Source: Thermoplasmatota archaeon | GTDB lineage: Archaea; Thermoplasmatota; Penumbrarchaeia; Penumbrarchaeales; Penumbrarchaeaceae | DNA length: 38,475 bases | NCBI GenBank assembly: GCA_029762535.1 | Contig: JARVGK010000030.1 | Span: 1 to 38,475, forward strand | Reading direction: 5' to 3' | In this document: positions 1 to 2,462 of the stretch, one piece after another | Numbering within the stretch: the first letter of the stretch is position 1 | Layout: every line of letters begins with the position of its first letter | Translations under genes and position numbers: made by a program | The notes under the pieces: generated by a model | Seen by the model: only the letters and a program-made list of their open reading frames with translations | Database searches by the model: none | What the model was told of the DNA's origin: nothing

Positions 1-2
1 AG

Positions 3-269
3 AATGTCATCAGGAGACTAAACCCAACGATAAGAGGCTGGGGTAATTTTTTTCGGTTATCCACTATAAAACAACGAATCTGGTACCTCGATAGATGGAT
101 TCAACAAAGGATACGAGGCTACATCAAGAAGAGATGGTGGTACACCGATATCAAAAGAATTCCGGCCGAGGAGATGCTGAAGATGGGACTTGTGACTCTT
201 GAATCCGTGATGAACATCCCTTGTCCTCTGGAATGGAGGGCTCTGCGGAGCCAATACTTCCGGGCGTGA
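3..269 (+). CDS. ltrA: Group II intron reverse transcriptase/maturase, C-terminal part (X/thumb domain); 5'-truncated by window edge; no endonuclease domain
   Basis: Manual translation of frame 3: NVIRRLNPTIRGWGNFFRLSTIKQRIWYLDRWIQQRIRGYIKKRWW...SQYFRA*. LNPxIRGWxNFFR is the maturase X-domain motif. The stop TGA (267-269) overlaps the start of intron domain V. Not in the supplied ORF track. Confidence 0.92.
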   Translation, partial: NVIRRLNPTIRGWGNFFRLSTIKQRIWYLDRWIQQRIRGYIKKRWWYTDIKRIPAEEMLKMGLVTLESVMNIPCPLEWRALRSQYFRA

Positions 270-341
270 GCCGTATGCGGGAAATTCGCACGTACGGTTC
301 TAAAGGGGGGGCGCAGGGCGAAAGCCCTGTCCCTACCCGGC
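268..341 (+). ncRNA. Group II intron ribozyme domains V and VI
   Basis: DV = GAGCCGTATGCGGGAAATTCGCACGTACGGTTC (268-300): AGC triad, GAAA loop, AC bulge. DVI = GGGGGGGCGCAGGGC-GAAA-GCCCTGTCCCTACCC with bulged branch A at 335, ending CCCGGC. Confidence 0.92.
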
Positions 342-343
342 GC

Positions 344-490
344 TTCTTACAGGCGTCCGCCCGAAGGGTCGCACTTGCGGAATTTTCCCGAAGGGAAAAG
401 GGGTGCGAGTGCGACATCGAAGGCACCTGGAGCGAAGCGGAAGGTGGAGTCGATGCGAGACAAGGGAGCAAAGCGACCGGCCAGTTGGAA
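344..490 (+). repeat. GC-rich multi-hairpin inverted-repeat element with GAA/AAA triloops (putative ssDNA-folded recombination/mobility site)
   Basis: CCC-GAA-GGG (360-368). GTCGCACTTGC (368-378)/GCGAGTGCGAC (405-415) enclose TTTTCCC-GAA-GGGAAAA (383-399). CATCGA/TCGATG (415-455) enclose CACCT/AGGTG and GC-GAA-GC. GG-GA-GC-AAA-GC-GA-CC (464-478). Imperfect outer stem TTCTTAC-a-GGCGTC / GAC-cg-GCC-a-GTTGGAA. Confidence 0.7.
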
Positions 491-965
491 ATTGCACATA
501 GATGACGGATGCATGGGTGGGGGAGAATCGATACTTTATGATAGAGATATCACAGAGTCCGAGTTCAATACTATTTGTCAGGAAAATTTTCTCGAAAATC
601 AGGGTGTTTTACATCCAAGAAAGAATGTTTTTCGTTATTGTGTAATGGCTGAAAATAATTGGGAAGACACAACAGGAGCTGCAGTAGGTGGTAAAACGGG
701 TTATGCATTTACTATTGCTAAAAATTGGATGTTAACAACAAGAATGGAGGCTGCCAACTTTATGCATGAGTTGGGACATGGATTAGGTTTACGCCCTGAA
801 GAAACGGGATTTAATGGAATAGATTCATGGGATTATCCTCATTATTATAGTTGTATGAACTATATATTTTTATTAACTACATATCCAATAGACTACTCCG
901 ATGGATCAAATGGTATTGGAGATTTTAATGATTGGGGATTTATAAAATTAAATATTAAGGAGTGA
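487..965 (+). pseudogene. Start-less C-terminal fragment of a metzincin-like Zn metalloprotease domain
   Basis: LHIDDGCMGGGE...RKNVFRYCV...FMHELGHGLGL...SCMNY (HExxHxxGxx plus Met-turn). AT-rich. The ORF-track N-terminus (375-486) is simply read-through of the hairpin element; no credible SD plus start or signal peptide. Confidence 0.7.
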
Positions 966-969
966 TAAT

Positions 970-1575
970 ATGAATCTACAAAGAAATAATAATTGGACCG
1001 TGATACATATATATAAAAAATTTTTAATGATACTTTTCATCTCAATATTTTTCTTATGTTCTGGTTGTATATATATCCAAAATACCAGTGATGAAAAATA
1101 TGATATTCTCTATTTTTTAGAAATTGAATTGATTAGAGAATCACAATATTATGTTTTATTACCACTACCAATAACCGCACCTGATGTTGTAAATGAAGTT
1201 AGCATTATTATTAACGATTTGAAATTTGAAAGCGGAAACGGTAATATATCTATCGAGAATTCTAAATATGGTCAAGTATTGAATGTCACCTTTTCAAATT
1301 CTATAATTCTCAAAGCACAAAAAAATTTTAGTCGAGATAATTTTGAAGAATTTTTTAATTATACCTTTGTGAGATTATCAACATCTAGCATAAATGAAAA
1401 ATCGGAAGTGACTTATTTTTACTTTCATGGTTTGGAAAATAATACCATCTCATTATCTTTCCGTTGTTATACTCGTCGGTTAAATGATAAAGTAACATTA
1501 GACCAAGATGCATGGGAATTGAACCTTAATAGTGTTAAAGATGAATGGAATTATTATCCTATTAATATCTCGTAA
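970..1575 (+). CDS. Hypothetical lipoprotein (AT-rich)
   Basis: Basic residues, hydrophobic stretch and lipobox-like LCSGC. GGAGTG SD upstream, 4 nt after the protease stop. The start could also be GTG at 1000. Confidence 0.75.
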   Translation: MNLQRNNNWTVIHIYKKFLMILFISIFFLCSGCIYIQNTSDEKYDILYFLEIELIRESQYYVLLPLPITAPDVVNEVSIIINDLKFESGNGNISIENSKYGQVLNVTFSNSIILKAQKNFSRDNFEEFFNYTFVRLSTSSINEKSEVTYFYFHGLENNTISLSFRCYTRRLNDKVTLDQDAWELNLNSVKDEWNYYPINIS

Positions 1576-1755
1576 GGATTATTAAAATTAAATAGGTATA
1601 TCACAAGGCCAAAACGGTGCTTAATCGTAGATCGCGCGGTCCGGAAAATTCCCGCAAGGGAATCATACGAGAGCCGAACAAGAGCAGAATTTGTGTCGTT
1701 GCCAGCAGGAAGAAATGCATCTAAGGAAATGTGCAAGAAGATGAATGTCGGAGGC

Positions 1756-2082
1756 TCAGTCGGGAACGACGAATTGTTCCAGATAAGCGCGAATCTCTTC
1801 AACATCCGCAGGGATCTTGGAACAATCAACGATGATGATCTCGTAACCTGGCATCCTATACTGCTCGATCTTCTGGTTCCGGTACTTCCTCGAAACATGG
1901 AACTCAATTTCATACAAGGTCCTTGTTGTCTTATCGCAGAGATCGACATATCCGTTGGGGACCTTCCACTCGGATGAGACATCATGTTTCATGTCTCTTA
2001 GGATCCAGAACAGGATCGCTTTGGCTACGAAATGCTTGTAGCCTTCGTTCGATAGCTTTGTTAGATGATTCGGCCAGCTCAT
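1756..2082 (-). CDS. Small PD-(D/E)xK-fold nuclease-like protein
   Basis: 108 aa with KH..K...E...VD........YEIE spacing typical of restriction-endonuclease-like folds. GGGGGT SD 8 nt upstream. Confidence 0.6.
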   Translation of the reverse strand: MSWPNHLTKLSNEGYKHFVAKAILFWILRDMKHDVSSEWKVPNGYVDLCDKTTRTLYEIEFHVSRKYRNQKIEQYRMPGYEIIIVDCSKIPADVEEIRAYLEQFVVPD

Positions 2083-2092
2083 AACTTAATAC

Positions 2093-2462
2093 CCCCTGAA
2101 GATCTTTCTTCAGGGGATCCTGGGAAAGATCGGAAGGAGAATTTGGAACAGAGGAACCGGGAGGAGAGAGAAATATTTCCCTGGTCTCTTCTGCGCGCCT
2201 TCGAACAGAGCGCAGAAGGGGGAGTGGCCAGCGTGGGAAGTGGATGAACGAAGTGAAGGAACGGTTGGGTGTAGGGTGAGTGTGAGTTGATGATCAGAAT
2301 CCTGGAGCTGTAAGTAAGTAGGATAGGCGAACGGTTCTTTTTGGAAAAGAAATGAAGCGAAGCAAGTGAATGATCATCGAAGAAACAAAGGGAAATTTTT
2401 TCTCCTTCAGAATAAAAGCCGATATACTATTACACCGGGATCGGCATTTACTGATTTTATTC
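2093..2462. other. Highly structured non-coding region (nested inverted repeats)
   Basis: Stems: 2093-2102/2107-2116 (10 bp perfect), 2133-2141/2400-2408, 2175-2182/2389-2396, 2188-2196/2210-2218, 2289-2296/2371-2378, 2335-2341/2345-2351, 2410-2417/2455-2462, 2418-2423/2440-2445. Confidence 0.6.

Follow-up and report, generated by a model that had tools for sequence, protein, structure and literature searches.

A candidate tip-swapping gene array with a nuclease-encoding inter-cassette element in uncultured Thermoplasmatota archaea

What kind of locus brings together a protease C-terminus detached from the rest of its gene, a lipoprotein gene, a small antisense gene of nuclease appearance and conserved folded elements? 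The question is raised by the left end of contig JARVGK010000030.1 (C26 below) of assembly GCA_029762535.1, a Thermoplasmatota archaeon genome of 2.96 Mb, 53% GC and 102 contigs; the stretch under analysis, referred to as the window, comprises 38,475 nucleotides (nt) from the start of this contig. A sequence-only reading of its first 2462 positions had proposed an island of shuffling cassettes, moved by folded single-stranded hairpins in the manner of an integron or an HUH transposase and parasitized by a site-specific group II intron. Comparison with other loci revealed that window 342-2403 makes up a single unit of an array of modules that occurs in uncultured Thermoplasmatota archaea. The unit consists, in this order, of a GC-rich leader (element A), a 37-nt box, an AT-rich protease tip, a lipoprotein gene (the partner of the tip), tail B, an antisense gene for a putative PD-(D/E)XK nuclease, and the structured element C. 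The interpretation that we consider probable, with some reserve, is that of a polymorphic, tip-swapping gene array specific to Thermoplasmatota, in which recombination would drive the exchange of tips and partners.

Tips, partners and the 37-nt box

The full-length counterparts of the window tip are long genes of up to 1649 amino acids (aa), bearing TSP3 repeats and a C-terminal protease domain that holds the box in the middle of the catalytic domain, after a DIFVEVDWM strand and a helix and before the motif FMHELGHxLGL. In the short forms, everything upstream of the box is replaced by a GC-rich leader made of an upstream half, Aup (126 nt), and of A (149 nt), and the window tip is without the DIFVEVDWM strand and the next helix of the full-length genes. 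The HELGHxLGL motif is invariant, while matches to Pfam Reprolysin_3/5 and to adamalysin and serralysin entries of the PDB stay below the cut-offs and cover the helix only. An AlphaFold2 (AF2) model of the protease domain reached a pLDDT of 43, and the position of the box within the fold is taken from the alignment only. The sequence-only reading had described a start-less metalloprotease C-terminus with a lipoprotein; the HExxH-bearing C-terminus and a lipoprotein-like open reading frame (ORF) are indeed there, but the lack of a start is an effect of the intron and of the contig end. A one-off truncation of a protease gene was ruled out, as at least 10 other copies have this same junction.

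The partner ORF of the window begins 4 nt past the tip stop. An ORF follows 19 of the tips, and in 18 of these cases it lies at -23 to +13 nt and encodes a protein that bears a signal peptide and a lipobox; these partners belong to one divergent family (23-33% identical) and co-vary with their tips. The tips themselves are 27-40% identical to one another, those from short and long contexts intermixing. As had been supposed from the sequence alone, tip and lipoprotein are supported, by likeness to polymorphic toxins, as an orphan module of that type, in which toxicity and immunity would be the respective roles. Modules of this kind recur downstream of full-length genes.

The repeat formula of the arrays can be written as a cassette (box, tip, partner; AT-rich, 1.0-1.2 kb), an inter-cassette element (tail B, antisense nuclease gene, C, a ~130-nt spacer, Aup, A) and again a cassette beginning with the box. 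The inter-cassette element is ~1.2 kb long and thus comprises tail B, the antisense PD-(D/E)XK gene, the core of C (C-core), the ~130-nt spacer, which is promoter-like, and the leader Aup+A. Tandem short forms are present on G003:C16, where a full-length gene precedes an A-led cassette, on G013:C17 and on the metagenome contigs L062-L064, L045 and L057. In these arrays near-identical A and box precede differing tip/partner cargo, which upholds both the notion of a cassette island and the expectation that other copies of A would each be followed by a different AT-rich fragment; nuclease and C are multi-copy in relatives as well. In this genome, BLAST revealed a paralogous locus on contig C30, encoding, in the order of the window unit, a protease of at least 489 aa, a 242-aa membrane protein and a nuclease (91% aa identity) and then carrying C (89-90% nt identity). 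The DNA match between the window and C30 protease genes is limited to the 37 nt of the box (491-527, 97%), their proteins being 23% identical.

Three independent comparisons indicate that recombination breakpoints fall at the edges of the box. First, the window and G003:C119 are 98% alike over A and box and have tips that are 36% alike, with DNA similarity ending at ~525. Second, L062 and L057 share tip and partner at 84% nt identity over 906 nt (tip, 93% aa), one of them behind a long-gene context including DIFVEVDWM and the other behind A, and the homology begins at the first base of the box. Third, two long genes of G010 are 77% (nt) and 71% (aa) identical over the 140 aa before the box and 32% identical after it. 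These comparisons bear on a different explanation, namely an ordinary paralogous family in which the short forms are expressed independently, from a promoter of their own and with a structured 5′ leader acting as a cis-regulatory RNA, the box is kept for a role in RNA pairing or in regulation, duplication produced the arrays, and recombination is an incidental event. Divergence in situ, however, cannot yield such dissimilar and compositionally different cargo between spacers that are 80-98% identical. The occurrence of the same tip behind two unrelated upstream contexts, and of short forms devoid of the invariant DIFVEVDWM strand and helix, also speaks against this explanation.

The box is constrained at the DNA level and not only as a peptide. 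Its codons in 25 copies are nearly always TTG CAC ATA GAT GAC GGA TGC ATG GGT GGG GGA, with a synonymous-codon identity of 0.893. Other motifs, DIFVEVDWM (0.477), FMHELGH (0.512) and IFHY (0.592), are equally invariant as peptides, yet use their synonymous codons freely. Throughout families of the class, the box occurs in multiple copies that are 92-100% identical, and genomes sharing the window elements carry Thermoplasmatota or Thermoplasmata labels as metagenome-assembled genomes (MAGs). A search of 185,579 species genomes for the exact box pattern returned only ~12 Thermoplasmatota MAGs and two short contigs of one MAG labelled Promethearchaeota. The latter, L045 and L057 (WJMJ01000097.1 and WJMJ01000146.1), are 2.7-3.0-kb contigs of RBin_111 that hold complete units, and an RBin_111 tip shares 93% identity with one on a metagenome contig of Thermoplasmatota type; these units go back either to mis-binning or to a transfer from one phylum to another.

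The features of the unit are collected in Table 1. GC content falls from 0.61 at window 301-500 to 0.23-0.29 at 900-1600, which confirms the switch to AT-rich DNA noticed earlier; this drop starts 3′ of the box and not precisely where A ends. The purine-rich region C forms the right end of the island, beyond which lie core genes for a DUF234/AAA ATPase with an Mrr-like C-terminus (2521-3771, minus strand), a surface protein with LEA_2 plus PKD domains (4025-4756, plus strand) and a ferritin-like protein (4757-5269, minus strand). The array in L062 is likewise flanked by a ferritin-like gene.

Table 1. Features at the left end of the window, with coordinates and the basis of each assignment
Feature	Position	Strand	Basis
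Group II intron 3′ end: maturase C-terminus (ORF 3-269) and domains V/VI (266-341)	1-341	+	Pfam, Rfam
Element A, 3′ part of a ~275-nt GC-rich structured leader	342-490	+	Fold z-score, identity with relatives
Box, 37 nt, encoding LHIDDGCMGGG	491-527	+	Nucleotide invariance, breakpoints
Protease tip, C-terminal ~157 aa of a reprolysin/metzincin-like zinc protease domain (FMHELGHGLGL)	492-965	+	Alignment
Partner lipoprotein gene, 201 aa, signal peptide with C-S-G-C lipobox	970-1575	+	Lipobox, position after tip
Tail B, spacer between convergent partner and nuclease genes	1607-1755	.	No significant fold
108-aa protein of predicted PD-(D/E)XK fold	1756-2082	-	AF2 model, structural neighbours
Region C: 10-bp hairpin (2093-2116), then C-core (2171-2395)	2083-2403	+	Conserved structure, covariation

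The inter-cassette element and its guest intron

The small nuclease-like gene recognized at the outset encodes a 108-aa protein that is predicted to have the alpha-beta3/4-alpha-beta-alpha PD-(D/E)XK fold. Its AF2 model (pLDDT 86) comprises a helix (12-30), four strands, a helix (65-74), a strand (81-86) and a helix (94-102), and the structural neighbours I-Bth0305I, VRR-NUC, ngo0050, AF1548 and Hjc were retrieved with middling Z values of 5.7-7.9. Residues D47, E58, E60 and K71 are invariant and E13 nearly so, the motif being ExE rather than ExK; a match to Pfam PDDEXK_9 (E 0.009) is below the cut-off. The close family numbers 54 clusters with unnamed or hypothetical-protein labels, whose few source names are Thermoplasmata archaeon MAGs, and a profile search yielded 170 representatives, some of them fused to ParB_N plus helix-turn-helix (HTH) DNA-binding domains. 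Distant homologues sit tail-to-tail after pairs of a secreted protein and a small ORF.

Several variations were met around this gene. A variant of 126 aa, with an 18-aa insertion after helix 1, is present in two arrays (L020:75-455 and L045:833-1213). In G003:C16 (L019:4609-6432, minus strand), an IS1634-like transposase gene (DUF4277, 607 aa) lies between nuclease and C, and the nuclease is cut to 78 aa; this insertion splitting the spacer is the only transposase seen near the arrays. In the distant relative L074, a MazE/PIN pair stands beside the nuclease gene at the place of a cassette. Just upstream of the nuclease start of the window, the perfect 10-bp hairpin of region C covers a GGGGG run resembling a Shine-Dalgarno (SD) sequence on the minus strand and is kept in relatives, which suggests that the nuclease may be under translational control. 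Inverted repeats enclosing the nuclease gene were not seen in the window.

Structured region C, also anticipated from the sequence alone, was confirmed. Its C-core of ~225 nt has the closing stem ATTTCCCT/AGGGAAAT; the plus-strand structure has 94.6% of its cells paired, where slid controls have 41-59%, and in nine of the pairs both sides have changed. The covariation score of 0.217, versus 0.134 in shuffles, was reached by none of 500 shuffles. A covariance model of the C-core (R1) detected seven copies in this genome, namely on C26, C30 and C10 and four on C25. The copy on C10 (C10:3940-4174; L006) is a solo C-core (88.6% identity) whose boundaries are sharp; a serpin gene lies on one side of it and a convergent PIN/AbrB toxin-antitoxin pair on the other.

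The same model uncovered a second, divergent array on C25 (28000-48200; L072/L073), in which AT-rich TSP3-repeat proteins of 875, 673 and 901 aa with small membrane ORFs are punctuated by the four C-core copies, two nuclease homologues (37-39% aa identity, E 2e-24) and GC-rich leaders with many GCGAAGC hairpins. Two effector families of this genome thus have a conserved nuclease/RNA spacer in common. BLAST of A against the C25 leaders gave no similarity. GCGAAGC motifs, which form stable DNA mini-hairpins, recur in A, C and the C25 leaders.

Element A folds better than its shuffles (z -3.35) and is 78-98% identical in G003, G013, metagenome and RBin_111 contigs, in agreement with its earlier designation as a folded element. 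Copies from relatives show alternative hairpins at one position and a compensatory stem swap, and variable sites are spread evenly over the codon positions (15/12/14); for these reasons A is constrained as nucleic acid. The even spread rules out A as ordinary coding sequence, and the frame is nevertheless kept, indels of 15, 12 and 3 nt all preserving it. In relatives, an open frame runs from an ATG with an SD sequence (e.g., L020:925) through Aup and A into the box. Aup, which has a promoter-like TATA, an SD sequence and an ATG upstream, lies off the contig beyond the intron, and a search for it in this assembly did not find it. Together, the 3′ part of A and the box (117 nt) have a mean identity of 0.91, higher without one insertion-bearing copy, despite synonymous divergence (dS) of 0.4-1.4 between copies of the nuclease gene, for which the ratio of nonsynonymous to synonymous divergence (dN/dS) is 0.07. 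In round figures, A and box retain ~95% identity at a dS of ~0.8. By these measures nuclease, C and A are under purifying selection and the spacer is functional.

When G-U pairs are allowed, the 5′ start of A (CTTCTTACAGGCGTCCG, window 342-358) and the 3′ half of the box (CGGATGCATGGGTGGGGG, 507-525) are complementary to each other. RNAalifold pairs the two segments, and the use of G-U makes the pairing strand-specific; as all of its positions are invariant, covariation cannot test this predicted pairing. The same segment of A may also work in trans, on the long-gene transcripts. Such pairing agrees with the paralogous family introduced above, as do the TATA-like box, SD sequence and ATG upstream of Aup, the frame kept through A, the plus-strand specificity of the C and leader structures, and a C25 leader that contains stops in one unit and is clearly non-coding there. 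However, G010 has four boxes and no A, so that pairing in cis with A cannot explain the conservation of the box, which is equally invariant in the long genes of such A-less genomes. On balance, we regard an ordinary paralogous family as quite improbable.

Tail B fared differently. Proposed as a hairpin from the sequence alone, it contains one short GNRA-type hairpin, and on neither strand does its fold surpass that of shuffles (z +0.96 and +1.09). Tail B is single-copy in this genome; its homology with relatives starts at 1698-1744, and a nuclease-proximal segment of ~60-100 nt is common to some copies. An Rfam scan of A, B, C and the leaders of relatives matched no family.

An integron-like or HUH-type system moving cassettes via the folded single-stranded hairpins A, B and C would fit the conserved, folded A and C at cassette borders, the stability of GCGAAGC mini-hairpins as DNA, and the existence of an integron-like locus elsewhere in this genome. 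However, no IntI, Xer or HUH gene (and no other tyrosine recombinase) adjoins the arrays with readable flanks (L019, L020, L021, L062 and C25:26-60 kb), the DNA preceding the array of the window being unassembled, and the sole conserved protein has the PD-(D/E)XK fold, with no HUH motif among its invariant residues. The att-like repeats of the integron-like locus are confined to C25:85940-88112. Attached to this are the lack of a significant fold in B and the many G-U pairs of the predicted structures, which favour one strand. Attempts to recognize attC-type palindromes at the cassette borders met only the coding box and the spacer element; the junctions fall within the box, and cassettes contain two genes with their own leader. 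The hairpin mechanism of the sequence-only reading is therefore highly improbable.

The contig begins inside a group II intron, whose 3′ end was correctly placed at 341. Only the last 88 aa of the maturase are on the contig, where the X-domain matches Pfam GIIM (E 1.4e-11), and domains V/VI match Rfam RF00029 with 54.5 bits against a gathering threshold of 40 bits; the reverse transcriptase domain and the intron 5′ end lie off the contig. It is the sole D5/D6 match in the assembly. The intron sits in sense orientation between Aup and A, splitting the leader, and given this orientation splicing could remove it. Of eleven A copies, ten are free of it. On a contig of run X2, an allele without the intron joins Aup straight to position 342, with 2 differences in 182 nt, and relatives too have this direct joint. 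In the probable source run, the same intron also precedes a different 3′ exon, and an intron of G031, 75% identical, occupies yet another site. Hence the intron is a secondary, incidental and non-specific guest in the leader, and not the site-specific parasite that had been proposed. Its repetition probably broke the assembly at the window start.

Possible routes of exchange

In the tip-swapping interpretation, the expressed genes would be those for large secreted TSP3-repeat proteins ending in a reprolysin-like zinc protease domain, each with a cognate lipoprotein gene, and spare tip/lipoprotein cassettes would be stored behind the conserved ~1.2-kb inter-cassette element. Exchange by recombination is suggested by the box that begins every cassette, stored or in a full-length gene, and by the conserved element that most of them precede: the former would anchor the exchange at the 5′ side and the latter at the 3′ side, new tip/partner pairs being swapped in by gene conversion or reciprocally. 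Host homologous recombination would presumably carry out this step, and the nuclease and folded elements may promote or regulate either exchange or expression. By analogy, the protease/lipoprotein pair may act like an effector with its inhibitor or immunity protein.

Several points weigh against this interpretation. Contigs and reads aligned to the window revealed only paralogous cassettes and neither excised circles nor alternative, excision or deletion joints, and no switching event was observed. Joints at 523->1723, 524->1771 and 527->1793 were rejected, as they come from paralogous loci whose cargo differs. Through the leader a frame stays open as far as the tip, with its ATG and SD sequence, and the "stored" cassettes may therefore be expressed genes. 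Among the 16 cassettes with enough downstream sequence, five are without the nuclease. The N-terminal parts of the long genes are divergent (31-45% aa identity), unlike the conserved stalk of classical polymorphic toxins. The box sample comprises ~25 copies from about a dozen related MAGs, which as kin are not independent. Finally, 37 nt are short for homologous recombination, and a site-specific enzyme may be at work.

In another explanation, each unit of tip, partner, B, nuclease, C and leader is a mobile cassette that integrates site-specifically at the box of a resident gene, its own tip becoming fused to the resident N-terminus and the old tip being displaced behind the cassette leader. 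The PD-(D/E)XK protein would then be an endonuclease or integrase, and A and C its folded recognition sites. Tandem accretion, sharp junctions on both box edges, the purifying selection on the protein and folded parts, and the sharp boundaries and solo occurrence of the C-core are consistent with such an element, as are the homing endonuclease among the closest folds, the ParB/HTH domains of distant relatives and the shared GCGAAGC mini-hairpin motifs. A degenerate A-led copy (L057:971-1405, minus strand) carries a 63-nt insertion inside the box, after ...ATAGATG and continuing as GATGACGG..., which could mark a cutting or crossover point; the same copy has a further ~80-nt insertion between Aup and A. 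On the other hand, neither circular nor empty-site junctions turned up in the contigs aligned to the window, and no relatives of the nuclease were found in phage records, plasmids or IMG/VR viral contigs. Conservative integration by PD-(D/E)XK enzymes alone is not known, several units do without the nuclease, and the box stays intact beside the element, unlike a typical homing site. Taken together, we consider a mobile cassette of this kind unlikely.

Returning to the tip-swapping array, a bolder extension would make the inter-cassette element a self-encoded cassette-exchange device of a new kind, acting either by nuclease-triggered gene conversion, as in mating-type switching, or as a cargo element integrating at the box. 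Several unrelated polymorphic effector families of Thermoplasmatota would make use of it, with metalloprotease tips here and multi-pass membrane tips on C25. This extension is put forward tentatively, as a possibility on which we would not count.

Relation to known variable systems

The locus is best read as a tip-swapping system akin to polymorphic toxins, whose inter-cassette element had not been described before. In bacteria, polymorphic toxin systems that keep orphan C-terminal/immunity cassettes include the cdiA-CT/cdiI modules of contact-dependent inhibition (CDI), Rhs and MafB, and such systems are as a rule missing from most lineages of archaea, with rare exceptions in methanoarchaea and haloarchaea (Zhang et al. 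2012, PMC3482391). The present locus shares with them a large secreted multi-domain protein, a hypervariable C-terminus, a linked small partner varying with the tip, orphan tip/partner modules after the full gene, a short conserved junction able to anchor recombination, and low GC in the variable DNA. It differs in that the junction lies inside a catalytic domain, so that a lone tip is an incomplete enzyme, in that the N-terminal stalks are not conserved and the partner is a lipoprotein of one divergent family, and in that cassettes are separated by a 1.2-kb element with a PD-(D/E)XK gene and two structured elements. We know of no described system with a comparable nuclease/structured-element spacer between cassettes.

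Among archaea, the VARTIG module of Thermococcales is similar in being polymorphic-toxin-like, with a large surface protein whose C-terminal part is hypervariable through recombination and with variable downstream genes (Makarova et al. 2021, PMC8416519). It belongs to another lineage and carries Ig domains, whereas TSP3 repeats plus a metzincin-like domain are found here; its abstract mentions no nucleotide-invariant box, orphan arrays or conserved nuclease/RNA element (PMC8416519). With integrons, including those of archaea, the locus has in common that exchangeable cassettes, often AT-rich, are set out in arrays with folded elements between them (Ghaly et al. 2022, PMC9668308), and an association of group II introns with cassette arrays has been described (PMC7923331). 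It is unlike integrons in the lack of an IntI gene beside the readable arrays and of attC-type sites, in its two-gene cassettes with a leader, in the coding-box junction and in the PD-(D/E)XK nuclease.

A third comparison is offered by silent-cassette systems. Neisseria pilE/pilS, Borrelia vlsE and yeast MAT/HML/HMR combine an expression locus with incomplete silent copies that have short flanking homology, and in yeast mating-type switching the dedicated HO endonuclease starts gene conversion. The cassettes described here differ from these in carrying a partner gene, in having spacers that encode a nuclease and in their archaeal lineage; the likeness is one of anatomy, no switching having been observed.

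Effector systems that store tips are familiar from bacteria; to our knowledge, nothing is known of how archaeal cassettes are exchanged. The locus offers a concrete anatomy: a junction of 37 nt, conserved as DNA, within an enzyme domain, cognate lipoproteins, and a nuclease/folded spacer reused by a second effector family. It also shows a naturally occurring group II intron residing in a leader. Should the spacer drive exchange, it would be a recombination module of a new type that might serve as a tool; otherwise, the locus remains a record of genes of inter-archaeal conflict or surface variation in widespread sediment Thermoplasmatota.

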